From the IMG/VR virus record IMGVR_UViG_2140918012_000003: a DNA stretch of 64,000 nt; one strand, 5' to 3'. The DNA comes from a virus. The notes under the pieces are model-generated. The model made no database searches, was not told the DNA's origin, and saw nothing but the letters and a program-made list of their open reading frames with translations. Positions 36,722 through 58,321 of the stretch are shown in pieces. A program made the position numbers and the translations under genes. Numbering within the stretch: position 1 is the first letter of the stretch; every line of letters begins with the position of its first letter.

Positions 36722-37744
36722 ATGTACAAGCTGCTTACACGTGATGCCTTTCGCGAGAGCGTCTTTGCACGCGATGGGCACAAGTGCATCTTGTGCAAGT
36801 CACCAGCCGTCGATGCCCACCACGTTATCGAACGACGCCTCTTCCCGGATGGTGGCTATTATCTCTCAAATGGCGCCTCTGTCTGCGAAAGCTGCCATCT
36901 GCGCTGTGAAGCCACGCTGGTTTCCTGTGAAGAAGTACGGGCTGCGGCCGGTATCAAACAGCTAGTCCTACCACCGCATTTGTACGCTGACGCAGAACAA
37001 GCCTACGATAAATGGGGCAACCCAATCTTGCCTAACGGCCAGCGGCTTCGCGGCGAGCTATTCGATGATGCCTCGGTACAAAAGGTCTTAGCACCGGTTC
37101 TTCATCTTTTCACAAACCGTGTGAAATACCCTCGTACTTGGCACCTGCCGTTTTCACCGGGCATGCACGATGATGACCGCATGATCGAATCGACTGCGCA
37201 CTTCGTAGGGCAGCGTGTAGTCGTCACCGAAAAACTCGATGGCGAGAACACTACCATTTATCGTGATTACGTTCATGCACGTTCGCTCGATTACGCACCT
37301 CGGGTTGACCGAGACTGGGTGCGTGCGCTAGCGGCTCGCATCGGTTATGAGCTAGACGAAGACTATCGTGTATGTGGAGAAAACCTTTGGGGGACCCACG
37401 CCATTAAATACACGCAACTACCATCATACTTCATGGTGTTTTCGCTGTGGGATGGGCTAAAGTGCTTGCCATGGGATGACACCAAGGACTGGGCTGCACT
37501 TCTGGGCTTGCAAACTGTACCGGTGCTCTTTGATGGTATCTGGGATGAAAATTTAATTCGCAAGCTGCACCAGAAACGCCGAGGTGTTGACGAGTCTGAA
37601 GGGTTCGTGGTACGCTTGGCTGGTAGCTTTCACTATCGAGATTTTCGTCATGCTGTCGCTAAGTACGTGAGGGCTGGTCACGTTGCTGGCTCACATGCGT
37701 ATACTACAAAACGCATTTTTGAAAGAAATGGGCTAGTACGATGA
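36722..37744 (+). CDS. HNH domain - RNA ligase fusion protein
   Basis: N-term RDGHKCILC...DAHH...NGASVCESCH; C-term KYPRT, TEKLDGEN (motif I), CGENL, EGFVVR, KYVR. Confidence 0.85.
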   Translation: MYKLLTRDAFRESVFARDGHKCILCKSPAVDAHHVIERRLFPDGGYYLSNGASVCESCHLRCEATLVSCEEVRAAAGIKQLVLPPHLYADAEQAYDKWGNPILPNGQRLRGELFDDASVQKVLAPVLHLFTNRVKYPRTWHLPFSPGMHDDDRMIESTAHFVGQRVVVTEKLDGENTTIYRDYVHARSLDYAPRVDRDWVRALAARIGYELDEDYRVCGENLWGTHAIKYTQLPSYFMVFSLWDGLKCLPWDDTKDWAALLGLQTVPVLFDGIWDENLIRKLHQKRRGVDESEGFVVRLAGSFHYRDFRHAVAKYVRAGHVAGSHAYTTKRIFERNGLVR

Positions 37745-42099: not shown

Positions 42100-44286
42100 T
42101 TGCACTGTTCGCCTAAATTTCCAGTCAGGGACCTCGGTCAGTTGCACTGTTCGCCTAGTCAGGCTTACCTCACAGAAGTGCGGCACGCAAGCGCCGAATC
42201 GCGCTGGCCAAGGACCGCTTCTTGGCCGACAGGCCGAACCTGATCATACTCTCGATCTGAAAGTAGGTCAGGTCTCTATTGACCGCGTTAACGCTGTCAG
42301 CGACCTGCTGCTCTAGTTCTGCCTCGGGCAGTTCCTCTACAAATCCGAGTAGGTTGAGAAGATTTTCACGGGTTCCCTAGGTCACGCCTGGGCATCTTTA
42401 CTTAGCTCTTCAATGAACGAACGGTCGGTTTACGACCCTTCCATTTACTATCGCGAACAGGCTTGATCGTACACAACGGGCCATCCGGTCAGCACACACG
42501 ATCAAACACGGGTGGACGCAATTGCACTGTTCGCCAGAGAGTCGTCGCATGTCAGATTGCACTGTTTGCCTTGAAGACCTGCGTTGGCTTCCAGGATTAC
42601 TGCACTGTTCACCGAACATTTCACGTCGCGGGTATTTTTCTCTTGCACTGTTCGCCGCTAAGTTTTTTAATCTACGAGTACTTCCTTTTGCACTATTCGC
42701 TTGCGGGCCTGCACTGTTCACCCTAAATGGTCGCCTTTCGCGCCAAGTACTTGCTTGCACTGTTTGCCGCCAAAGTCAACATGGTCATCCACGACACTTG
42801 CACTGTTCTTCCCAAAGTCGAGGAAACAACTCGACGAGATAGCTTGCACTGTTTGCCACACTTGAGGAATGATCTGCTCAGAAACCGTGGAAGTCGCATT
42901 CAGGTCGATTGACGGCGCCCGCTCAATGGCTTCGCGCAGGGCCGCTCCAGAGTCGCATTGCACTATTCGCTAAAAAGGTTATGGCCAAAAAGAGAAACTT
43001 GCACTATTCGCACCTCAGGCACAACGTCGATCTGGGGCGACTCAAAAACTTGCACTGTTCGCTTAAATTCGCCGTCATGCTTTTTCGCCTAAGTTGAGAA
43101 AATCGAGCGCTCTGCACTATTCGCCTGAATCAGCGTGAAAACCATGGCGCTCCTGGACCGACCTTGCACTGTTCGCCTGATAACAAAGCTGCGTGGGCCA
43201 AGCTGCGGCAGCACAAATTGCACTGTTCGCCTAAATTGCCTCTCGCCACATAACCTCAACTAGACGTGTACATTATTGCACTGTTCGCGTCAAGACCTTT
43301 TTGAACAAAGGCCAGGTCTCCCAGATGGATTGCACTGTTTGCCAAATTTAGCAAGGGCGGCTGCACATGCTGCACTGTTCACCTTAAAGAGCGTCGCGTC
43401 GTACACCTTGCACTGTTTCGCCTAAACCCTGAGAGCGTTCAGACCGCCTTTCCGTATTGCACTGTCCTTGAAAAAGTACGACAACCGCTGGTCTTGCATT
43501 GTTCGCCAGACTAATACGAGGGCGCGCTTTCTTCTTGCACTGTTTTGCCATCGACGGCGCCGAGTAATTGCACTGTTTCGCCTAAACCATGTTCTTCCCC
43601 AGAAGAACTCCGTCTTGCACTATTCGCAGACCTGATACCCCTTGCACTGCTCGCCATCCTCTTTAACCACCAGGTAGAACCGCCACTGGATTTGCACTGC
43701 TTCGCCAGCCAGTCCAACGAGATCATCTTACACTGTTCGCCACAGAGGAACCATCATGCGCTATTGCACTGTATCGCGACTTTGCACAACGGGAAACTAG
43801 TCGGAATCGAACCGAATTTGCACTACTCGCTAAGAAGATTGAAGATGTTGTCTTTGCACTGTTTTAGCACAAATTCCTGAGACGAATTGCATTGCTCGCC
43901 TAGAAGCCGAAAGTGGTAGACGGCTTGCACTGTTTCGCCAACACACTCTCATCGTCGTCGGCACTTGCACTGTTTTGCCTAAAGCTTAATCACGTCCGCA
44001 ATCTGAATTGCACTGCTCGCGTTTAGGGGAGCGTCTTCCGATCTTAGCGCTGCCCTTCAAGGGAGGATGTTTGTGCCAACAGCTTTCTTGCACTGTTCAC
44101 CTGATGAATCATGCTCCACATCAGGCCAGCTTCTCGCAGTCGCCATGCTCGGATAATCGAATTTGCACTGCTCACCTGAACCCATCACAAACAGTCGTGA
44201 CGCTCGCCGCTTGCACTGTTCTGCCCTATTTCAAAATTATCAAAGATCGAATGTTCACCTGGGACTACTCTACTGCATTATTCGCC
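42100..44286 (-). CRISPR. non-canonical CRISPR-like array: about 40 x 14-bp repeat (+ strand TTGCACTGTTCGCC; - strand GGCGAACAGTGCAA) with unique spacers
   Basis: 40 copies counted by eye from 42100 to 44273; 31 of 39 periods are 33-58 bp; adjacent to a Cas12f-like gene and an anti-repeat hairpin. Confidence 0.75.
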
Positions 44287-44298
44287 AGTAAGAAAAGT

Positions 44299-44384
44299 GG
44301 GGTGCCCGCCGATTGGCGAACTTACGCGGAGCAACGTCCACGCATCCGGCACAAGTGCAATTGGCCGTCGGAGACGGGCACCCC
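44299..44384 (-). ncRNA. putative tracr/scaffold RNA with split anti-repeat
   Basis: 10-bp perfect terminal stem (GGGGTGCCCG/CGGGCACCCC) plus CCGA/TCGG; contains GGCGAAC (44315-21) and AGTGCAA (44354-60), the two halves of the repeat in inverted orientation; inner stem needs G-U pairs available only on the - strand. Confidence 0.7.
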
Positions 44385-44396
44385 GAATTTGTGTGG

Positions 44397-45005
44397 TTAC
44401 GCGGCGACAGCCTCCTGGGTGCGCTCCACGTTTACGCCCAGCCCCATAAGGCCACCACAGGCGATATCCACGGCAGTCCTGTGCTTGCCTGGATCTAGCT
44501 CTGCAATGATCGAGAGTACATCAATGGCGCGTTGCAGTTTGTCAGAAACTACGCCCCTTTTTTGTTTGGGCACCGCAACACCAAGGGCCAGGGCTTCTTC
44601 CCTCACGATATTGGCGACATGCCGATCTGAAGGTGTAGTGCCAGCTTCTGCTTGAAAAGACAGCAAGTGGGCTTTGACGTTTTCGTAGATGGCAGTACTG
44701 GCCTTCTTGGCAAGCTTCGGATCTGAAGCGTCAAGAGCACCGGCTAGAGCACACGCCCCAGCAAGACCAAGAGCATCGGCCCGCTTGCGCCCGTAGCGCT
44801 TAACGGCGCTATTATACTTGTTGTAAGTGGCCACCGAAACATGGAGCACTTCGCGCAGCAACTGGTCAAACGTCTTAAATTGGCCGACCCAGCTTTGCGA
44901 CTGGTCAAACTCCAAACACAGACCGAAGACCCGCAGCTTGGCCGCTTCGCCTTCTTTCTTGGCGTCCAGAATGTCAGTTACAAATGTTGCAAAGCTCTTT
45001 TTCAT
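44397..45005 (-). CDS. hypothetical protein, putative HTH DNA-binding accessory of the Cas12f-like locus
   Basis: 202 aa; ATGA overlap with the Cas12f-like gene; W..QFKTFDQLLREVLHVS..TY resembles phage HTH-type motifs. Confidence 0.7.
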   Translation of the reverse strand: MKKSFATFVTDILDAKKEGEAAKLRVFGLCLEFDQSQSWVGQFKTFDQLLREVLHVSVATYNKYNSAVKRYGRKRADALGLAGACALAGALDASDPKLAKKASTAIYENVKAHLLSFQAEAGTTPSDRHVANIVREEALALGVAVPKQKRGVVSDKLQRAIDVLSIIAELDPGKHRTAVDIACGGLMGLGVNVERTQEAVAA

Positions 45006-46603
45006 CGAATTTCCCCTTGCACGACCGCTGGAGCGGCTTTCTTCATGCGTGCGACCTTCATCTCGGCCTTGGTATTGCTGATCATCTTATCGGTGCGTGA
45101 GATAGCTTTGATAAGGGCAGCCTTGTATGGCTCGCCAGCGACCTTGGATGACAATAGCATGTTCTGGATGGAAGTCAACTCCAAATCGCCACTATGCTGA
45201 CAGTTGACGCACTCAAAAAAGCCATCCTTGGCGTCGTAGCCTACCACTTTGGGTAGACGCTTGATATTTTCCTTGCAAGTATGACTGCACACAGGGCATT
45301 TCTGCGAGATAAAAGCTGATGCCTCTTCGTTGACCTTGACCCCAGCCCTGCGGGTGAGCGCGTCAATCACACGGCCTTTCAATTCGGCCAGCGGGAACCT
45401 ACGCACGTAGGGTGCCAAATTCGGGTCGTCGGATTGGAAGGCTCCGAAATTATCGAGTAGCACAATACTAGCACCGTGGCGCTCAGCGAAGACCTGCACA
45501 GCTTTGGCTGCACGCCAAAGCTCTGTGTCGGTAAAGCGTGCCTCTTTATCGGAGAGCTTTTTCAGAGCAGCAAAATGCTTCTTCTTGCCTCGACCTGCGT
45601 GGGGTGTAGCGCTCAGGTCTTTTTGAATGAGCTTGCGCCGAGCATACATCTGCGATTTGAGGCGCACCAAATTCGTGCCTGGGTAGCTGCCCGTGGTCAC
45701 ATGGTTCTTCTTGTCGATCGCCAGGAACGACAGCATGTTCACGACGCCACGGTGAACAATCACGAGCGAGTCAGACTCTTCTTTTGCGAGCCGCGAAGAC
45801 TTGTAGGGAAGGCGCACGAACCATTTTTCGGGCTGGCCTGGCCGGCGCACCCGAGCAATTTGCAGGGCGCCTTTAGCATAGCCTTCGGCTTCTGGAACAT
45901 CGCTCTTGTCGTAGTCAATGGCCACGAGCTTTTTCAGCACCTCGACCATCGAGGCCACGCCACGGCCATGCAGGCTTTTACACACGAGGCGCATCTTGCC
46001 CTCACCGGGGCGCCAAGCCGAAGTTTCGATGACGACGTTCGTGTAGGTCTTGGGTTGACCCGTGCGAACGTCGGTTTTAGTCACTTCCTCAAAGAGCACA
46101 CGCCAGTTCCGGTTCCTGATCGTAAAAGGGACGTTACGTAGCAACGGGAAGGACGAATCGCCACGCAGAAGCGCGTTGAGCCTGTCACCGGCAAATTCCG
46201 AATCCACGATCCGCTTGGTAACGCTTGACCAGATATACTCGGTCAAGCCTGTAGCCTTCATGGCCTTTTCAACAGCCGTCTTGAACCCTACCGTGTCCCA
46301 GCACTCGGAAGGTAGCGGTACCTCTTGATCTTTGAGCATGGCGCGCTCATCAGCCGTAGAAAAGCGCATCTTGCCAGCCATACGCTGGTCCCGAAGCGAG
46401 ACAGCGATATCTGCGATAGCCACCTGAGCAGCCTTGCCGATATCACGGCTGGCAGTGCGTAGCTCTGCCCAGGCTTTCGTTCCGTCCGTTTTTTCAGGGC
46501 GGTAAAGCTCAAGCGTCATACAGGCGACCGGGTTTTTGGTCGGCTTGTGGACGCTGGATTCTTCTTCATCGAAATCATCGAGCGCGTCAGCAGCTTCTTG
46601 CAT
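45002..46603 (-). CDS. Cas12f/TnpB-family RNA-guided protein, predicted nuclease-inactive
   Basis: LLRGDSSFP, GRGKKK...LSDKEARF..., SQKCPVC and FECVNC zinc ribbon; RuvC positions read H287, D387, E478 (ORF-track numbering) in place of D/E/D; ATG 46603 is 7 nt after the -10 box. Confidence 0.85.
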   Translation of the reverse strand: MQEAADALDDFDEEESSVHKPTKNPVACMTLELYRPEKTDGTKAWAELRTASRDIGKAAQVAIADIAVSLRDQRMAGKMRFSTADERAMLKDQEVPLPSECWDTVGFKTAVEKAMKATGLTEYIWSSVTKRIVDSEFAGDRLNALLRGDSSFPLLRNVPFTIRNRNWRVLFEEVTKTDVRTGQPKTYTNVVIETSAWRPGEGKMRLVCKSLHGRGVASMVEVLKKLVAIDYDKSDVPEAEGYAKGALQIARVRRPGQPEKWFVRLPYKSSRLAKEESDSLVIVHRGVVNMLSFLAIDKKNHVTTGSYPGTNLVRLKSQMYARRKLIQKDLSATPHAGRGKKKHFAALKKLSDKEARFTDTELWRAAKAVQVFAERHGASIVLLDNFGAFQSDDPNLAPYVRRFPLAELKGRVIDALTRRAGVKVNEEASAFISQKCPVCSHTCKENIKRLPKVVGYDAKDGFFECVNCQHSGDLELTSIQNMLLSSKVAGEPYKAALIKAISRTDKMISNTKAEMKVARMKKAAPAVVQGEIR

Positions 46604-46610
46604 GTTGGTC

Positions 46611-46642
46611 ACTATACTCCTATGGTTCTTGACGTGTCAAGA
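46611..46642 (-). promoter_or_regulatory. promoter of the Cas12f-like operon with palindrome over the -35 box
   Basis: TTGACA-18-TATAGT on - strand; TCTTGAC-gt-GTCAAGA inverted repeat 46627-46642. Confidence 0.7.
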
Positions 46643-46648
46643 GGATTA

Positions 46649-46966
46649 TCACAGCCCACGTAGCGCTCGCTCCGCCCAGCGCTGCACATGATCATGCATT
46701 ATCAAAAATGCAGCTATCTCAGCGGCGTCGAGTGGATTGGATGTATCTAACATGCGATATTGGACGGCTGATAATGATCGCACTTTAATCGCCTCCCGAG
46801 GCACAGAGCGCCTGGGGAAGGCTGCGGCGTAGCTGGGAGTGTCGCGGTACACCATGCCGACCTCACCGGCTTCCAAATCCTGAGTGTCTGCATCTGCGGT
46901 GATCATGATGAATCGACTGGACAATTTATCCACCGCGAGATATCCGCGCGAAGGTGGTTCTTTCAT
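46649..46966 (-). CDS. IAA(F/Q)LL-motif family protein
   Basis: YRMLDTSNPLDAAEIAAFLIMH. Confidence 0.7.
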   Translation of the reverse strand: MKEPPSRGYLAVDKLSSRFIMITADADTQDLEAGEVGMVYRDTPSYAAAFPRRSVPREAIKVRSLSAVQYRMLDTSNPLDAAEIAAFLIMHDHVQRWAERALRGL

Positions 46967-47254
46967 TCATTTCTTCCAGTTCAGCAATTTGGTCGTGTAA
47001 TCTAATATGTCCTGATGCAGCAAATAGAATGCAGCTATCTCAGCGGCGTCTAGTGGGTCGGCAGAATCCAGTGCGCGATAGCTTAATGAACCTAACGGCT
47101 TAACCGACGCAAAGATTTTAAGCGCTGGAAAAGCAGCATAGTCTTCTTGCGGGTACAGAGGGCAAACGACACCAATCTCACCCTTGCGTACCACACGACT
47201 GCCCACACCACGACTTGAGTCCTCAGTGAGTACGATGAATTTATGGGTGCCCAT
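46967..47254 (-). CDS. IAA(F/Q)LL-motif family protein
   Basis: YRALDSADPLDAAEIAAFYLLHQD. Confidence 0.7.
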   Translation of the reverse strand: MGTHKFIVLTEDSSRGVGSRVVRKGEIGVVCPLYPQEDYAAFPALKIFASVKPLGSLSYRALDSADPLDAAEIAAFYLLHQDILDYTTKLLNWKK

Positions 47255-47731
47255 CTAGTACTTCACTCCTGGGAACTTTCTAAGTATAGCGCGTGAATCG
47301 AAATCTGGGTGCAGCAACAAAAATGCAGCTATCTCAGCGCGGTCGGCTGGTTCTTCTGGGTCGAGTAGATGATAATCGCAATCACGCAGTAGCAAACTAT
47401 CATAGTCAGCAAAGGCAACATCAGCCGTTCCGTCACTCCACACCACATAGATCATACCAACGCACCATCCGAAAACAGGACGGTTAGCCAGGACATACCG
47501 GCCCAGCAGCACGCGGCACATGACGCCCGCTTCCAAAAGACTCTCTAACACATAGCCTAGCGCCGGCATTACCTCACCACCGTCCCAGCTAATGACATAA
47601 TTGTAATTATAAGTTGAGGGCTCCACCCGCACAATTCTTCCTGTCACCTCTTTTTCAGTGTACTCGGCGTCCAACGCCCAAGCAGCGTCACCCAAAATAA
47701 AGCGACCAACGAGATTCTGGTCAGCCATCAA
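47255..47731 (-). CDS. IAA(F/Q)LL-motif family protein
   Basis: YHLLDPEEPADRAEIAAFLLLHPD. Confidence 0.7.
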   Translation of the reverse strand: MMADQNLVGRFILGDAAWALDAEYTEKEVTGRIVRVEPSTYNYNYVISWDGGEVMPALGYVLESLLEAGVMCRVLLGRYVLANRPVFGWCVGMIYVVWSDGTADVAFADYDSLLLRDCDYHLLDPEEPADRAEIAAFLLLHPDFDSRAILRKFPGVKY

Positions 47732-48060
47732 GACCCGCCGTACAACGCAGAGTATAGTTTAGTTTTCTGAGACGACCACCAATCCGGGTGTAGCAAATGC
47801 GACGCAGCCAACACAGCGGCATCTTTGCGGCGGTTCACATTGAGCACCTTGAATTGGGCACGTTTCGCCAAAGCCACACCACCCATATTTACCACGTGTA
47901 CAACATACCCATCATCTACTATTCCCAGAAGTACACCTACATCTCCACGCGCGTACTGCCGCCCGCCATGCATAAAATCGCACACAAACTCGACGAAGAC
48001 ACCTCTCTTAGGAATCACGGTCAACCTCCGTAAAAATCCCTCGCAGCCGGACAAGCCCAT
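47728..48060 (-). CDS. IAA(F/Q)LL-motif family protein
   Basis: FKVLNVNRRKDAAVLAASHLLHPD. Confidence 0.7.
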   Translation of the reverse strand: MGLSGCEGFLRRLTVIPKRGVFVEFVCDFMHGGRQYARGDVGVLLGIVDDGYVVHVVNMGGVALAKRAQFKVLNVNRRKDAAVLAASHLLHPDWWSSQKTKLYSALYGGS

Positions 48061-48440
48061 TGCACTCCATCCGCAGGAAGCATGCGATCCTCATCTAACA
48101 GGTGTGCCGCGATCTCGGCCTTCACTATTGGGTCAGATGCGTCCACTTTTTGGTAGTGAAAATTTCCATTACCTTGTTCGCCTAGAACACCACCACCAAA
48201 CACTTTGAAAGCAATTGCGGACGCGCACGCTGCCCCTTCAAATTTGTAGCGACAACGCATAAAGCGCATCCACCACCTTACCGTCTGCCATCCACTGCTC
48301 GTCACCGTCCGTGTGTAATCAATGTGAGCAGACACAACAGCATATCTGTACACATTAATGGGGAACTTGCGGCTGCACACGATGACAAAATCGCCCTCTT
48401 TAAGCTTGGAAGGGTCGCAGGTGCATTTAGGTCTGCTCAC
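48021..48440 (-). CDS. IAA(F/Q)LL-motif family protein
   Basis: YQKVDASDPIVKAEIAAHLLDED. Confidence 0.7.
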   Translation of the reverse strand: MSRPKCTCDPSKLKEGDFVIVCSRKFPINVYRYAVVSAHIDYTRTVTSSGWQTVRWWMRFMRCRYKFEGAACASAIAFKVFGGGVLGEQGNGNFHYQKVDASDPIVKAEIAAHLLDEDRMLPADGVQWACPAARDFYGG

Positions 48441-49173: not shown

Positions 49174-49595
49174 AATATCGTAGTGTATACCTCTTTTGAC
49201 AGCTTGTCAAGATGGGAACACTGCCATTCTATCATCGGCGCTGGCACAAACGTGCGCGTAAGCATTTGGGCCGCTAGACCACTTTTCACTTGAGGGTGCT
49301 CAATGTCTACTTTCTGATAGTGACAGTATCGCCCCAACACCCCATGCATCTCAATATCTAGCTCCACTCTTTCTTGCACTGAGAGTCTTGCAATGGACCC
49401 AATATTTGGGTACCAAGAATACATGCCCAGGCCAGGGCAGTAAAGTGTGTAAAAATGCCTATCGTGGTGTGTAACGCTCTTGACAAACCCATAGACACCG
49501 GGAAGCTCATCGACTAGCCTATTTTTAGACTCCACAAAAATCAGGTCACCCTCTACGAGCGTACACCGGTCGAAACACGAGCACTCATCAGACAT
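49170..49595 (-). CDS. IAA(F/Q)LL-motif family protein
   Basis: YQKVDIEHPQVKSGLAAQMLT; ATG 49595. Confidence 0.65.
   Translation of the reverse strand: MSDECSCFDRCTLVEGDLIFVESKNRLVDELPGVYGFVKSVTHHDRHFYTLYCPGLGMYSWYPNIGSIARLSVQERVELDIEMHGVLGRYCHYQKVDIEHPQVKSGLAAQMLTRTFVPAPMIEWQCSHLDKLSKEVYTTIL
49182..49210 (-). promoter_or_regulatory. conserved phage promoter with TTGACA-gct-TGTCAA palindrome
   Basis: TTGACA-17-TACACT on - strand; ATG 8 nt downstream. Confidence 0.7.
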
Positions 49596-50322
49596 CGAGA
49601 ACCAGCGGCTCGTAATACGCCTGTCGCATACTCTCAGAGGGGTAGCCGAACGGGTTGCAAACCGCACGAGTATCGCCAATCTTGCGATCGTCCGGTGAAT
49701 GCGTGTGCCCATAGAGCCAAAGGGCAGGCGACCACTCGGTGATAATGTCCTGCATCTCGCTTACGAAAAAGCGGTTAAGGCCGCTCCCAGCATACTGCTT
49801 GGCAACACATTTGTACGACGGCAGGTGGTGCGTGACCACCACATCACCAGGCCGTAGAGCTTTCTTGAGCCAAACCCGAAATTCTGTATTGTGGTTATGC
49901 ACCCATGGAACGATGTTTTTTATCTTGTTAAAATCGTTGATATCGCCTCTGTAGGCTTCTTCATCCTCGGTGCTGGGGAACCACATGGTATCTCCCAGGA
50001 ACCGCACACCGTCCTGCTCGTAGACGTGGCCGGTCTTCAGGACCGTCACAGCAGGCAGCAGCTTTTCGATGGCTGCAAGTTCCGCCAAACCAGACTCCAC
50101 AGAGCTTCCGTAGAATTCATGGTTACCAGGAACGAAGATCACCTTCTTGCAGCGCCTTGTGAAAAGGTCCAACATCGTGCGCAAATGCAGATGCTTGAAA
50201 GACCCGATATCCCCGGCCAGTACGAGTACGTCTAGCTTGGAGAAATCCAGACTTTCGACAAAGCTAACCCCCAGATCTGCATGAAACTCCAGGTGGGCGT
50301 CGGAGATAAGGCCAATCTTCAT
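49588..50322 (-). CDS. calcineurin-like metallophosphoesterase
   Basis: ISDAH, LAGDI, PGNHE, VTHH, YGHTH. Confidence 0.92.
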   Translation of the reverse strand: MKIGLISDAHLEFHADLGVSFVESLDFSKLDVLVLAGDIGSFKHLHLRTMLDLFTRRCKKVIFVPGNHEFYGSSVESGLAELAAIEKLLPAVTVLKTGHVYEQDGVRFLGDTMWFPSTEDEEAYRGDINDFNKIKNIVPWVHNHNTEFRVWLKKALRPGDVVVTHHLPSYKCVAKQYAGSGLNRFFVSEMQDIITEWSPALWLYGHTHSPDDRKIGDTRAVCNPFGYPSESMRQAYYEPLVLDV

Positions 50323-54197: not shown

Positions 54198-56297
54198 CTA
54201 AGTCAGATCCATGAGTTTGAAATATTGAATCCAGGCATCCAGGTCCTTGCCGCTACTCCACTGGTGCCGAGCGTATGCGAATTCGCCCTGCATAGCAATC
54301 CGAAAAAGCGGGTACTTGGCGTAGAGCGCTCCAATGGCTTGCTTGGCGACATCTTCCTTGTCCGTACCGCGATTAACAAGGTAGTCCAACGCAGAGGAAT
54401 TTTTCTGCTGTCTACCCTCCTGGTACTTGCGCACAGCCACAGTCACCGGATGCTTGGGGCCAAGAGCCTTCGTTACATCCTGCACATCCGCCCTCAACAC
54501 ATCGCACGCACTCCACTGTTTAAGCTCAAGTTGAGCTTTCACTTCGGGCAACGCAAGAATTTTCTTCGTGAAAGCTGCGCTCCATTTATCGTAGGCAGTG
54601 CCCTTGCACTTGTCGCCCGTGACAGGCTTAGCCTCCGTGGTCTTATACCCGTAGATTTCGGGCATTTTCGCGCCCGGCGCAAAGGTCTTGACGATCTCAG
54701 CGTCCTGTCGAAAACGCCGGTAAATATCCTGACCGTCACTACTCTTGAAGCTCGACAAAATGACAAACACGTCATCATCGGTCGGCTCCCTCACAGCGAT
54801 CTCCCAGCGATCTGAGAGCAGGTCGCTGTGGATATTATCGGGCACCAACCGGAACATTTTCGCCCGGTGCTTCGGGTTTACCTGGCGTTGCGGATAGCTC
54901 CGAGTTGCAGGAGCCGTCCAAGGCAGCGTTGAAAGATTGATGAGTGGAATGCCCTTGATCAGCTTCTTCTCAATTTCAGCTTCAAGAGCAGCACGTACAG
55001 CTTCCACCATGACCGTATCGATACGCTTGGCTACACTCTTCCGTCGGCGTCGAGGGCGACCGTGCTTGTCCGTACGGTCGTTGTCTTCATCGAGCACCGT
55101 GCGACCGACGATGTATTCGCCCCGTTTATCTACCTCAAACCCCGACAGCGCTCGCCCATCATCACGAATGATAATACGGGAGCTTTCACCAACATGAACT
55201 TCGAATGCGTTAAATATGGGCCTCTCACCATCTTTGACAGCGGGTGGCACAATCTCAACGTAATCCTCAGTAAGCTCTTTTGACTGCTTGTCGAGCTTGA
55301 GCCCAAATCTACGCAGTCCCTGCGCCTTGAGGCGACGCTGCCACGGCAGGACATCCGGCGCATGGATTTCGCGCAGGGCAACCTCAACGTATTCAGCAAT
55401 AAATGCATTGAGCTTATCCACCAAAGCCTTTTTGGTCGCAAGGCTATATTTCAGAGCCTCACGAGACGCACTGACCTGCACATCCCCGATGTTGAAAAAG
55501 AGCACACCACTGAGTTTCTTGACGCATTCCTCGGGTGACCCAGCCTCGTCAGCATCGTTGACAAAAAGCTCGTCCAAATTGATCTGGTACGGGATGCAGC
55601 CCATGACAGCCGTCCATTCACCGCTGCTGTAGTAATCAGCATCCACAAGAGCGCCGTGAACGAGCCTTGCAGGCACGTCTGGAAGAGCCGTATTGATGAC
55701 AGGACGCGGTTCAAAATACTGGAAGACCTTCCTGGCCTTCGTCTCAAATTCACCAATGTCCTGCTGACGCACAGCCATCTGAATCGTCACGCCAGTTTCA
55801 TCACCGCAAGGTTCTTCACCAAGCAGATTGATTACACCACGCTCAGACGGATCGAGCACAGCCACGAACGTGCGCCGCACGCCACCGTGGCAGGAGATCA
55901 CCGTAAAAGAATCAGAGTACGCAAAGGCACTTTTGCTCCCGATCCCCATAAAGCCCACTTCGCCATCGCTATTGCGTTTGGTGGACGCACCGTACTGCGA
56001 GTAGACGTTGAATACGTCATCGAGTGACAGGCCAGGGCCAAAATCCTGGATGGAAAGCGTGGGGTCAGCCAGGGTGGGCAACGTGACCTTGATGGGCTTA
56101 TCGCCCTTGCCGATTGACCTGTGGGCATCCCACGCATTCGATCCGTACTCACGCAGAACAGCCGTGATCTTGTCGGAGTACAGGGTACTGCGCAGGATTT
56201 CAAGAATATGCGAGGTATCGGTTTCCGAGATACCAAACGTACCTTGCGCCGTTACACCGCTTGATTCAAGCTCTCGCGGATGCTTATTCGGAATCAT
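54198..56297 (-). CDS. rIIA: rIIA-like protein (GHKL ATPase N-terminus)
   Basis: ILRSTLYSDKITAVLREYGSNAWDAH; IQDFGPGL; GASTKR..GFMGIGSKSAFAY; ETGVTI. Confidence 0.88.
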   Translation of the reverse strand: MIPNKHPRELESSGVTAQGTFGISETDTSHILEILRSTLYSDKITAVLREYGSNAWDAHRSIGKGDKPIKVTLPTLADPTLSIQDFGPGLSLDDVFNVYSQYGASTKRNSDGEVGFMGIGSKSAFAYSDSFTVISCHGGVRRTFVAVLDPSERGVINLLGEEPCGDETGVTIQMAVRQQDIGEFETKARKVFQYFEPRPVINTALPDVPARLVHGALVDADYYSSGEWTAVMGCIPYQINLDELFVNDADEAGSPEECVKKLSGVLFFNIGDVQVSASREALKYSLATKKALVDKLNAFIAEYVEVALREIHAPDVLPWQRRLKAQGLRRFGLKLDKQSKELTEDYVEIVPPAVKDGERPIFNAFEVHVGESSRIIIRDDGRALSGFEVDKRGEYIVGRTVLDEDNDRTDKHGRPRRRRKSVAKRIDTVMVEAVRAALEAEIEKKLIKGIPLINLSTLPWTAPATRSYPQRQVNPKHRAKMFRLVPDNIHSDLLSDRWEIAVREPTDDDVFVILSSFKSSDGQDIYRRFRQDAEIVKTFAPGAKMPEIYGYKTTEAKPVTGDKCKGTAYDKWSAAFTKKILALPEVKAQLELKQWSACDVLRADVQDVTKALGPKHPVTVAVRKYQEGRQQKNSSALDYLVNRGTDKEDVAKQAIGALYAKYPLFRIAMQGEFAYARHQWSSGKDLDAWIQYFKLMDLT

Positions 56298-56303
56298 GCA
56301 AGT

Positions 56304-56332
56304 AGTGTATAACAGGTTTGGCAGGATGTCAA
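56304..56332 (-). promoter_or_regulatory. conserved phage promoter (leaderless-type)
   Basis: TTGACATCCTGCCAAACCTGTTATACACT, 1 mismatch to the 33950 copy; ATG 6 nt downstream. Confidence 0.8.
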
Positions 56333-56374
56333 GTACGGTCTAGCGTGCCGGTTCCTGCGTGATATTCTCGTCGG

Positions 56375-56623
56375 TCATTTTGGATTCTTTCTTTTGGCTA
56401 TCTCTGCTTTGTACGCAGTGAGTTGCTGGACGTACTTGGCTTCGCGTTCGGGCATGTTGTCGCAAGCTTCGATCTTCCGTTCAATTCCTTTCAGGAACGT
56501 CTCTGCGACTTCAAGCATGAACGGGTCGCGCGACAGATCAAACGCCTGCAAACAGGTCTTGAACCCTCGCTCGTCGTTGGCGTCGGCTGCATCCATGAAC
56601 GCGGACACAACTTCGTCGGTCAC
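56375..56623 (-). CDS. hypothetical protein
   Basis: 82-aa ORF. Confidence 0.6.
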   Translation of the reverse strand: MTDEVVSAFMDAADANDERGFKTCLQAFDLSRDPFMLEVAETFLKGIERKIEACDNMPEREAKYVQQLTAYKAEIAKRKNPK

Positions 56624-56625
56624 TT

Positions 56626-56940
56626 CTACACCGCATCTAACTTCCGCACAGGTTGGTGCCTAGGGTCAATTAGTGACGTTGAATCACCGCATACAGTCAC
56701 TACTGGCACTCGCTCCTTCTCGCCGTAAAACGCCAGCATTTTCTGCGGCCACTCGCTAGTTTTAACCGCGTGCCGATCCCAGATTTCGTCTTCTACAAGC
56801 TTTTGTGATGGGCTCCTAAATGATACACCATGCTCCAAATCTTCCGCTAATTGACGCAGGTCATTGTCAGAAACATGCTTGACCCAATTAGGCTCTGCCC
56901 ACTCACCCACCACATACTCAGGGTCAAGAGGCAGACGCAT
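56626..56940 (-). CDS. hypothetical protein
   Basis: 104-aa ORF, GAGG upstream. Confidence 0.6.
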   Translation of the reverse strand: MRLPLDPEYVVGEWAEPNWVKHVSDNDLRQLAEDLEHGVSFRSPSQKLVEDEIWDRHAVKTSEWPQKMLAFYGEKERVPVVTVCGDSTSLIDPRHQPVRKLDAV

Positions 56941-56946
56941 ACCTCA

Positions 56947-57384
56947 CTAGACCTTGAAATCCAGATGCTGCACCGTACGCAGCGTTGCGTGAACCGTGCC
57001 CTTGTCCAAGTCAATTGCGATCTGCTCAAAACCGTGCGCCCGTGCCCATTCGATAGCGCCCTTCAATTGCTGCATGAGCGGGTTGCCATTCGGCTGGACC
57101 AGCGGCTGCTTCTGCACTCTCATGCCGACGGCCGTACGCTTATATACACCCAGACGAAGCTGTTTAGCACGAAGTTTAACGGCCAACGGCGACCTGGTAT
57201 CGTGCTGCTGGCACTTCTTGTGCTTGATACCAAGCTCAGCAGCTTTTTGGGACACACCACGCTTAGAGCGTCCCATAATTTTGGCGACAGCCGCCCAATT
57301 ATCTCCATTGGCAGCTTCACGAAGCTTGGCGATTTCCGATACGGACCATGCATTGCCTGGCATTTGATTACTCCTATCGTACAC
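56947..57384 (-). CDS. Myb/SANT-like HTH protein (putative)
   Basis: WSVSEIAKL....WAAVAKIMGRSKRGV. Confidence 0.6.
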   Translation of the reverse strand: MYDRSNQMPGNAWSVSEIAKLREAANGDNWAAVAKIMGRSKRGVSQKAAELGIKHKKCQQHDTRSPLAVKLRAKQLRLGVYKRTAVGMRVQKQPLVQPNGNPLMQQLKGAIEWARAHGFEQIAIDLDKGTVHATLRTVQHLDFKV

Positions 57385-58321
57385 TCATGATCTTCTTAAC
57401 GAGCGCTACCTTGCCACCAGGAATCTTGCTGGCGCCGATGATGCTGAGGTTTTTGGTGGCGTACTTGCGCAAGTCTTCGATGGACAGCTTGAGCAATCCT
57501 TCCGCACCAAGCTTATCGAATTTAGAAGCCTTGGGACGAGCCTTTTCGACGTGCTCAGGCTTGAGCGTCTTCTTCACCTTGCCCTGGTCAGCCTTGAGGT
57601 TGAAGCTAGTCGAAGGCAGATTGGCACCATGCATGCCCACCACCTTGTACTTCGACACCCGCATCTTCTGCTGGCTAGCATCGTAGGGCACGCACACGAC
57701 ATCAGCCGGATCGATTTCACAGATCACGAGACGACTTTCACCGCTACCGAAAGTACTCGCATAGTGCAATGAGCCAACGTGGAAACCTTCATGACACGCA
57801 ACTTGCGGGTCATCCGAAATCTTGTTGCGCGGCATCTCATTGACCACACCCGGCTTGTTGCTGACTTCACCCGAGTGGTGGTCCTTGTAGTCAGCCCGCA
57901 CGGACTTGTAGGCCAAGATATTGCCATCTTCGGAAATGGCGATGTTCTGGTGGTCGAGGAACCCCCAAAGTTGGTTTACTGACCGGTATGACGGATTCTC
58001 GGAAAGCTTCTCCCAGAACTTGAACAGGCTCTCGGGGCTTTCACCCTTGGCAGCCATATTGAAGATACGCCCCGAAAGCTCGCCAGGCAACGCCTCACCA
58101 GCGTACTCGATGGTGCTACCATCAACCTTGAACTTGCCCTTCGCCCATTTCTGAACGCTCATAGGCACGGACAGGTGCTGCGGCACGCTATCCCAGTCTT
58201 CGTCTATGATGGCTTTGCGCAAGTTGGTGAAATTAGGGGTGCCCTTGCGCACTGAATGGGTCTTGCCGTTGATAACGACGGTGATAGAATCGGTGGTGAT
58301 CGTATACGCAGGTTTCGTCAT
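57374..58321 (-). CDS. rIIB: rIIB-like protein
   Basis: FLDHQNIAISEDG.ILAYKSV..DYKDHHSG...EMPRNKISDDP..C..G.HVG...VVCVP.D...KMRVSKY. Confidence 0.88.
   Translation of the reverse strand: MTKPAYTITTDSITVVINGKTHSVRKGTPNFTNLRKAIIDEDWDSVPQHLSVPMSVQKWAKGKFKVDGSTIEYAGEALPGELSGRIFNMAAKGESPESLFKFWEKLSENPSYRSVNQLWGFLDHQNIAISEDGNILAYKSVRADYKDHHSGEVSNKPGVVNEMPRNKISDDPQVACHEGFHVGSLHYASTFGSGESRLVICEIDPADVVCVPYDASQQKMRVSKYKVVGMHGANLPSTSFNLKADQGKVKKTLKPEHVEKARPKASKFDKLGAEGLLKLSIEDLRKYATKNLSIIGASKIPGGKVALVKKIMSVR

Follow-up and report, generated by a model that had tools for sequence, protein, structure and literature searches.

Here, we describe a candidate RNA-guided system in a 64,000-nucleotide (nt) stretch of viral DNA (IMG/VR record IMGVR_UViG_2140918012_000003; hereafter the window, meaning the whole stretch that was analyzed). 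We consider it probable (roughly 60%) that this is a phage-borne, CRISPR-derived system in which a Cas12f-type effector binds DNA under the guidance of RNA without cutting it. Its components lie on one strand: the effector, whose RuvC catalytic positions differ from the canonical ones, a small partner protein, a structured scaffold RNA resembling a tracrRNA (trans-activating CRISPR RNA), and an array of short repeats, each reduced to a 14-nt handle (coordinates in Table 1). The carrier is best read as a temperate phage. The reading is carried by the homology and fold of the effector, by its RuvC triad and the conservation of this triad in a family of relatives, by covariation within the scaffold, by co-variation of repeat and anti-repeat, and by the anatomy of the array.

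A full-length Cas12f-type effector

The effector gene is an uninterrupted open reading frame (ORF), encoding 536 amino acids (aa) over 45002..46612 (P0001) and 533 aa in the database copy that starts at ATG 46603 (P0002). A near-consensus promoter ends 7 nt ahead of this ATG; transcription would therefore start at about the ATG, which makes the shorter ORF the likely gene and implies an mRNA that is leaderless or nearly so. Residue numbers below follow the 536-aa form (subtract 3 for the 533-aa protein, in which the RuvC residues are H284, D384 and E477).

In a phmmer search of the PDB, the best match of the effector is SpCas12f1 (9i8y, E = 1.4e-11), with further Cas12f chains next. A profile of the family finds SpCas12f1 at 1.8e-21, and its matches consist of Cas12f chains and one weak Cas12g. 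The best PADLOC models, Cas12u3 (3.8e-23) and Cas12f (5e-20), cover nearly the full length, while Pfam and NCBIfam return just sub-threshold TNB/TnpB matches. The AlphaFold model, built on the family alignment, reaches a predicted local distance difference test score (pLDDT) of 84.7, and Foldseek against the PDB places AsCas12f first (E = 2e-18, probability 1.0). AsCas12f, OsCas12f, SpCas12f1, CnCas12f1 and Un1Cas12f1 match over the whole length, and the top 17 matches are all Cas12f.

The WED-REC-RuvC-TNB architecture of the Cas12f type is recognizable both by sequence and by fold. The four zinc-ribbon cysteines (C439, C442, C468 and C471) are invariant in 26 aligned sequences, and the segment GRGKKK..L.DKEARF aligns with the Cas12f bridge segment in a hidden Markov model (HMM) alignment. 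At the termini, the model shows a disordered acidic N-terminal tail (pLDDT <50) and a basic C-terminal extension that forms a long helix (494-526). Sequence and structure model together confirm a full-length Cas12f-type protein that has kept its RuvC/TNB fold. A first-pass annotation, made from the sequence alone, had proposed a Cas12f-like protein at 45002-46603 with zinc ribbon and bridge segment retained, and on both counts the ORF, the PDB and PADLOC matches, Foldseek and the alignments agree with it. It had also named a structure unrelated to RuvC as evidence against its proposal, and the predicted fold is RuvC/TNB. The HMM comparison with Cas12f and Cas12m, which it had recommended, puts the protein clearly on the Cas12f side, with no Cas12m match.

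A remodelled RuvC site shared by a family

The canonical D-E-D triad of RuvC is absent from the effector, which has H-D-E instead (H287/D387/E480). In the HMM alignments, H287 takes the position of the RuvC-I Asp (vmgvDlgv against vivHrgv) and D387 that of the RuvC-II Glu (tiqiEnl against ivllDnf), as the first-pass annotation had placed them by eye. Its alignment of RuvC-III (DLELTSIQNM with NADYNAARNI) was also right; the residue concerned, though, is E480 and not E478, as it is the second Asp of the family motif 'aDlD' that aligns with the RuvC-III Asp of AsCas12f ('ANADYNAARN'), where the window protein has E480.

A search of 5.8 billion proteins gave 25 relatives with 31-60% identity, and when 1.84 billion cluster representatives were searched exhaustively, 17 clusters scored below 1e-30 and 341 below 1e-3. 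Among about 40 close relatives, the RuvC-I His-Arg pair is invariant and the triad is mostly H-D-D. The 26-sequence alignment likewise has H287-R288 without exception and D387 and D478 nearly without. Within the close family, most members have Asp at RuvC-II, where a deeper sub-branch has Glu, and RuvC-III is Asp everywhere except in the window protein and P0034, both of which have Glu. Across a wider set of 159 relatives (cluster representatives), the RuvC-I residue is His in about 100, Asn in 31, Arg in 18 and Asp in nine, and the residue that follows is Arg in 137. With His-Arg invariant and Asp or Glu kept at RuvC-II and RuvC-III, the site is under selection, remodelled and kept rather than decaying. 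On these alignments, the altered triad is a trait of the family and no private decay of the window protein, and the earlier view of three altered residues as a sign of decay does not hold.

All contigs of relatives that were inspected are metagenomic and phage-like (12-180 kilobases (kb), with phage genes). Neither an effector relative nor the scaffold was found in 185,579 prokaryote species (one genome each), and the JGI metagenomes contributed one extra family locus and no more.

A scaffold RNA with a split anti-repeat

Immediately downstream of the effector and partner genes lies the conserved scaffold sequence. Its predicted fold is a 12-bp outer stem around two hairpins (dG -45.6 kcal/mol, z -3.2). 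The loop of the first hairpin holds anti-repeat block 1 (UUGCACU), and block 2 (GUUCGCC) is single-stranded and follows the second hairpin. Together, the two blocks are the exact complement of the 14-nt handle. A scaffold with an anti-repeat complementary to the repeat, as a type V-F tracrRNA requires, is thus present in sequence and predicted structure. On its 3′ side, the scaffold is followed by ACUUUUCUU, with the first handle 12 nt on. Contiguous 8-mer and 12-mer anti-repeat searches of the window missed this split anti-repeat.

The closest homologous locus (L011; family loci are numbered in this way) has the scaffold in the same place, 3′ of the partner gene. The two scaffolds are 87% identical, with compensatory changes, while the adjoining proteins are just 40-60% identical. 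In L001, L002, L005, L012 and L013, it is the upstream side of the effector gene that carries the scaffold. Six loci served to build a covariance model, which also retrieves the scaffold in L003/L004, L017, L018 and part of L016, all outside the training set, and the scaffold occurs in at least nine distinct family loci. Over 11 distinct scaffold sequences, 98% of cells are paired and 14 of the 24 base pairs show compensatory changes; slid alignments are about 40% paired, and none of 500 shuffles attains the observed score. At gathering scores, Rfam has no family in the window, which also lacks tRNAs, and the IMG/VR search did not return the scaffold. L003 and L004 carry two tandem scaffold copies upstream of the effector (L003:9736-9983 and L004:8825-9072; ~89% identical, 133-nt period).

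An array of handle-only repeats

The handle, GGCGAACAGTGCAA, is repeated in a 2.3-kb non-coding stretch between the integrase gene and the operon. Matches within two mismatches number 30 in the window, against 0.64 expected, and the sequence information of the array is limited to these 14 nt. The spacers are 7-100 nt long (median 30), apart from one gap of 366 nt (~42156-42521). This gap is repeat-free, adjoins the integrase gene and contains the palindrome TGACCGCGTTAACGCTGTCA at 42280-42299; it could hold attP or a gene remnant. An interpretation of the array as coding sequence was rejected, with the motif falling in all frames.

The 14-mer of the window is exactly the scaffold-pairing part of the repeats of relatives, and pairing at 13 or more of the 14 positions is possible for 29 of the 39 handles. 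In eight loci, changes in the split anti-repeat go together with changes in the local repeats (Table 2).

Table 2. Anti-repeat blocks of the scaffold and the local repeat or handle that each matches
Locus	Scaffold blocks 2 + 1	Local sequence
Window	GTTCGCC + TTGCACT	handle GGCGAAC/AGTGCAA
L001	ATTCACT + TTGCAC	repeat AGTGAAT-G-GTGCAA
L003	CCTCATC + TTGCAT	repeat GATGAGG-A-ATGCAA
L005	CGCTCTT + TTGCAT	repeat AAGAGCG-A-ATGCAA
L012	GATCACC + TTGCAT	handle GGTGATC-G-ATGCAA
L017	CACTCTTT + TTGCAT	repeat AAAGAGTG-A-ATGCAA
L018	CCTC + ATTGCAT	handle GAGG-A-ATGCAAT
L016	TTGTAC	repeat GTACAA

Canonical CRISPR arrays, with 35-37-nt repeats and a period of about 73 nt, lie beside the effector gene in L001, L003, L005, L015, L016 and L017, and the arrays of relatives are on the gene strand. 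The L001 array has nine 35-nt repeats (period ~73), the first of which begins within the 3′ end of the effector gene; that of L003 has seven to nine repeats of 35 nt, and that of L005 lies upstream of the effector gene. Array content varies between near-identical phages (L001/L002 and L003/L004). Compared with such regular arrays, the window has 14-nt handles only, at irregular spacing. Handle-only, irregularly spaced units are also found 3′ of the regular arrays in L001, L003 and L017, and directly 3′ of the scaffold in L001, L012, L013, L017 and L018. Since these units recur in relatives, we regard the window array as an expanded version of a family-wide unit and not as a unique oddity.

Some of the units that follow a scaffold abut or overlap the start of the effector gene itself (L012:5986-6030, L001:7383-7432 and L017:4883-5025). 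In L012, the effector ATG lies inside the handle GGTGATCGATGCAAG, making the 'guide' there the effector's own 5′ end. These units suggest a possible autoregulatory or single-guide arrangement. More distant relatives of the H/N type (L007:5654-7092, L009:6781-7938 and L010:7976-8497, on IMG/VR viral contigs of 71-182 kb) have arrays in which 8-18 repeats, each about 36 nt long, all have the 3′ end GTTGGAGG. The scaffold covariance model (R1) has no match at these three loci, whose effectors probably use another helper RNA or none. In L011, tRNA-like sequences with CCA ends (L011:1-200) lie just upstream of the closest homolog and are followed by two tandem 25-nt repeats. These contain CCTTGCACCAGA, which on the opposite strand reads as the handle-like GGTGCAAG; either an attachment site or an operator could lie here.

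Partner gene and phage context

The gene that shares its start with the effector stop encodes a 202-aa, all-helical protein (Table 1). L011 has a counterpart in the same position (40% identity), and the window and L011 effectors share the C-terminal helical extension. At the other family loci examined, the partner gene was not found, which confines it to the window/L011 sub-branch. Neither Pfam nor PADLOC assigns the partner to a family, and a word search found no homolog besides itself. Its AlphaFold model is poor (pLDDT 57.5), with a best E of 0.19 in a fold search, and the Atlas holds just unnamed look-alikes of ~200 aa and a weak DUF3102 hint.

Table 1. The system and adjoining features in the window
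Feature	Position	Strand	Remarks
Cas12f-type effector gene	45002..46603	-	533 aa from ATG 46603; 536 aa from the in-frame GTG 46612 upstream
Putative sigma-70-like promoter TTGACA-18-TATAGT	46611..46640	-	11/12 positions; basis is the consensus match only
Conserved structured scaffold RNA, tracrRNA-like	44299..44384	-	~86 nt; fold and covariation
Array of 39 handle-only repeats GGCGAACAGTGCAA	42100..44286	-	all on the gene strand
202-aa all-helical partner gene	44397..45005	-	ATG overlaps the effector stop (ATGA)
Tyrosine recombinase (phage integrase)	40723..42057	+	convergent with the array; lysogeny-module context

Besides the integrase, the window encodes RIIA/RIIB-like proteins, an RNA ligase and a DNA methyltransferase. 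An integrase lies close to the locus in just three of about nine family loci, and the one in the window is taken as context. The stretches 54198-58321 (-), 36722-37744 (+) and 49588-50322 (-) hold the RIIA-like (699 aa) and RIIB-like (315 aa) genes, the RNA ligase, whose N-terminus is HNH-like, and the metallophosphatase gene. In L003/L004, too, the metallophosphatase gene precedes the effector by a few kb, a sign that phages of this group share synteny. Adjoining the window effector on its upstream side are five small ORFs in tandem (46649-48440 (-)). They have the C-terminal motif (D/N)P.DAAEIAAF(L/Y)L(L/M)H in common but differ in their N-terminal parts, which are unrelated, and Pfam has a family for none of the five. 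In L003, a sigma-70 region 4 domain occurs in a protein of 242 aa encoded 2.4 kb upstream of the effector (L003:6892-7620); that region of the related L004 encodes a Y1 transposase of the IS200 type. Among the neighbors of the window effector, nothing resembles this sigma protein or transposase, and a Pfam scan shows no sigma domain.

A model for guided binding and its alternatives

We propose the following model, in which the expression and processing of the RNAs, the lack of cleavage, the targets and the role of the partner are what we infer. The effector-partner operon would be transcribed from the promoter at 46640; farther along this strand come the scaffold and the 39 guide units, each made of a handle and, 3′ of it, a variable spacer. 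Block 2 of the scaffold would pair with the 5′ half of a handle and block 1 with its 3′ half, forming a three-way junction that the effector may bind as Cas12f does the duplex of CRISPR RNA (crRNA) and tracrRNA. The spacer 3′ of the handle would then serve as the guide to DNA. By analogy with the H-D-D site of Cas12m2, the His/Asp/Glu site may hold one metal ion and the displaced strand without cutting it, and the complex, once on its target, would keep rival mobile elements or selected host genes from being transcribed or replicated while the phage is a lysogen. A repertoire directed at competing mobile elements is suggested by the location in the lysogeny region, by the large number of spacers and by the differences between strains. 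The first-pass annotation had postulated an exapted RNA-guided DNA binder. Guide-dependent DNA binding is indeed the most plausible activity by the Cas12m2 analogy; an exaptation in the sense of having left CRISPR is not supported, because relatives adjoin bona fide arrays and the window itself has a tracrRNA-like scaffold and a 39-unit array on the same strand.

Several observations weigh against this model. No spacer target beyond chance was found in the 64-kb window or among INPHARED phages, a search of IMG/VR with two window spacers and two spacers of relatives gave no target, the family loci that were analyzed show no spacer matches beyond chance among themselves, and the 182-kb record of L009 contains no self-target. 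Expression and processing of scaffold and handle RNAs are predictions from the sequence. A GC-rich stem and U-run at the 3′ end of the scaffold could stop transcription before the array, for which no sigma-70-like promoter was seen. The shortest spacers (7-13 nt) are too short to guide. Furthermore, the step from an H-D-D site to no cleavage is an analogy only, because the family is not Cas12m, and a His/Asp/Glu site could support some metal-dependent chemistry.

This last point leads to an improbable alternative, in which the effector is still a nuclease of an ordinary interference-type phage CRISPR system and its His-Asp-Glu site cuts or nicks DNA, or processes RNA, through altered metal chemistry. 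The three RuvC positions are conserved and not drifting, RuvC-II and RuvC-III are still acidic, and Altae-Tran et al. argue that rearranged sites, when conserved, are often still active (PMC10691335). The canonical two-metal mechanism, however, has the RuvC-I Asp bridging both metal ions, and in Cas12m2 a His at this position goes with one Mg2+ and no cleavage, with a reversion to DED restoring no cutting (PMC10442227). Sister lineages with Asn or Arg at RuvC-I also argue against a catalytic role of the residue. In favor of the alternative, some Cas12 enzymes (Cas12c and Cas12j) use RuvC for processing of precursor crRNA (PMC10442227). The possibility that the 14-nt motifs are no guides at all, but either bind a protein, as iterons, a centromere or a decoy would, or act as RNA decoys for a host CRISPR system, in each case unrelated to the effector, is very slight. 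It would account for the irregular spacing of 21-114 nt, unlike that of arrays built by Cas1-Cas2, for the absence of adaptation genes and for the location of the array beside the integrase at a switch in gene orientation. It is hard to square with a motif that is identical to the 3′ handle of the 35-37-nt repeats in relatives, complements both blocks of the adjacent scaffold exactly, co-varies with them in eight loci and lies on the gene strand in every copy; in L001, L003, L013, L017 and L018, moreover, irregular handle-only units recur beside the scaffold or 3′ of canonical arrays.

We regard it as unlikely that the system serves not defence or competition but is a domesticated transcription regulator like TldR or dCas12f-sigmaE, with guides directed to host or phage promoters and the 202-aa partner as its output module (repressor or activator). 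A set of 39 different spacers, and array content that changes from one near-identical phage to the next, look like a repertoire for many targets and not like a few fixed operators, and the phage's own 64 kb contain no match to any spacer. As might be expected of an output module, the partner gene starts on the effector stop and is kept in the closest relative; it is nevertheless limited to the window/L011 sub-branch and lacks a recognizable DNA-binding or sigma domain. More in line with regulation are the several relatives in which a scaffold with few handle units stands at the 5′ end of the effector (in L012, with a handle across the start codon), the L003 sigma-70 region 4 protein upstream of its effector, and the known nuclease-dead Cas12f lineages that are accompanied by helix-turn-helix (HTH) or sigma proteins (PMC13472631; also V-U24, as briefly described in PMC10691335).

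Returning to guided binding without cleavage, we can extend the model to the family, tentatively and at slightly less than even odds. These effectors would form a virus-only lineage of the Cas12f type, with His in place of the cutting Asp and a compact scaffold with two 7-nt anti-repeat blocks. Whatever sequence lies downstream of a bare 14-nt handle would thereby become a guide. The phages could thus build and reshuffle sets of guides (39 here) without Cas1-Cas2, silencing rival mobile elements or host genes in lysogeny, with the partner perhaps as an added output module. Such a system makes two questions testable, namely by what means an array grows when adaptation genes are absent, and which targets a temperate phage silences with it. 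Its guide architecture is economical, needing an ~86-nt scaffold and a 14-nt handle per guide, and its pairing rules can be read from natural covariation, making effectors of ~500 aa attractive for compact, multiplexed DNA-binding tools.

Comparison with known systems

The nearest known systems over the whole length, by sequence and by fold, are Cas12f effectors of type V-F (SpCas12f1, 9i8y; AsCas12f, 8dzj/8j12; OsCas12f, 9nzq; Un1Cas12f1, 7l48). The window system shares with them the size of about 500 aa, the Cys4 zinc ribbon of TNB, a separate RNA that bears the anti-repeat, and an array on the gene strand with the repeat 5′ of the spacer; the repeats of relatives end in ...GAATGCAAG/C, as those of Cas12f do. 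It differs in its triad (H-D-E here and H-D-D in the family, compared with D-E-D), in a short scaffold with a split anti-repeat, in repeats cut down to the handle with spacers of variable length, and in the extra partner gene. The members found so far are, furthermore, all on phage-like contigs.

The closest parallel for the catalytic site is Cas12m2, whose H-D-D triad holds one Mg2+ and the non-target strand, and which binds without cleavage (PMC10442227). Like Cas12m2, the window system has His at RuvC-I, Asp at RuvC-II, an acidic residue at RuvC-III and no adaptation genes, and binding or silencing would be expected by analogy; unlike Cas12m2, its RuvC-III residue is Glu and not Asp. It does not group with Cas12m: the family profile finds no Cas12m chain in the PDB at E<=1, Cas12m2 ranks 25th in the Foldseek search of the effector model (template modelling score ~0.3), and the family has a scaffold RNA, whereas Cas12m works with crRNA alone. 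The shared triad is therefore likely convergent, which suggests that the switch from Asp to His arose at least twice.

The phage setting recalls Cas12r of Thermus Lalka phages, whose spacers target rival integrative elements (bioRxiv 10.64898/2026.04.20.719267). Both systems combine a small type V effector and an array with a temperate phage and a lack of adaptation genes, and a single repeat suffices for a guide in Cas12r. Unlike the window effector as we read it, Cas12r is an active nuclease (D238A abolishes interference); it needs no tracrRNA, its repeats are 29 bp long and its sequence is unrelated. The candidate subtype V-U24 (Altae-Tran 2023, PMC10691335) has a noncanonical RuvC-I, a CRISPR array and an HTH neighbor; by the one-line description in that source it fits, the small associated protein included. 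In a literature search of incomplete coverage, we found no account of a split anti-repeat scaffold, of handle-only arrays this large or of experiments on this clade.

With TldR and dCas12f-sigmaE, the system shares the character of an RNA-guided binder derived from Cas12f or TnpB. In the evolution of dCas12f, minimized 'half-DR' or 'half-repeat' guide units occur next to the tracrRNA (PMC10691335; PMC13472631), and in the window the scaffold is directly followed by handle units. In these nuclease-dead derivatives, RuvC-III and the zinc finger are gone with a truncated C-terminus, and the arrays are gone as well, whereas the window protein keeps both motifs and 39 guide units. No sigma factor adjoins it, unlike dCas12f-sigmaE, and dCas12f (9n9c) is a match at the level of fold only (Foldseek rank 20). 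TldR is TnpB-sized, has a fused, omega-RNA-like single guide and no array, and lies next to fliC or oppF; the window effector has 533 aa, an N-terminal half of the Cas12f type, 39 guide units and a phage context. The few natural systems that resemble CRISPR interference (Cas12m, Cas12k, TldR and dCas12f-sigmaE) would thus be extended by a clade so far on phage-like contigs only, and its handle-only units beside canonical arrays would represent a living intermediate of the proposed route that leads from CRISPR arrays back to omega-RNA-like guides.

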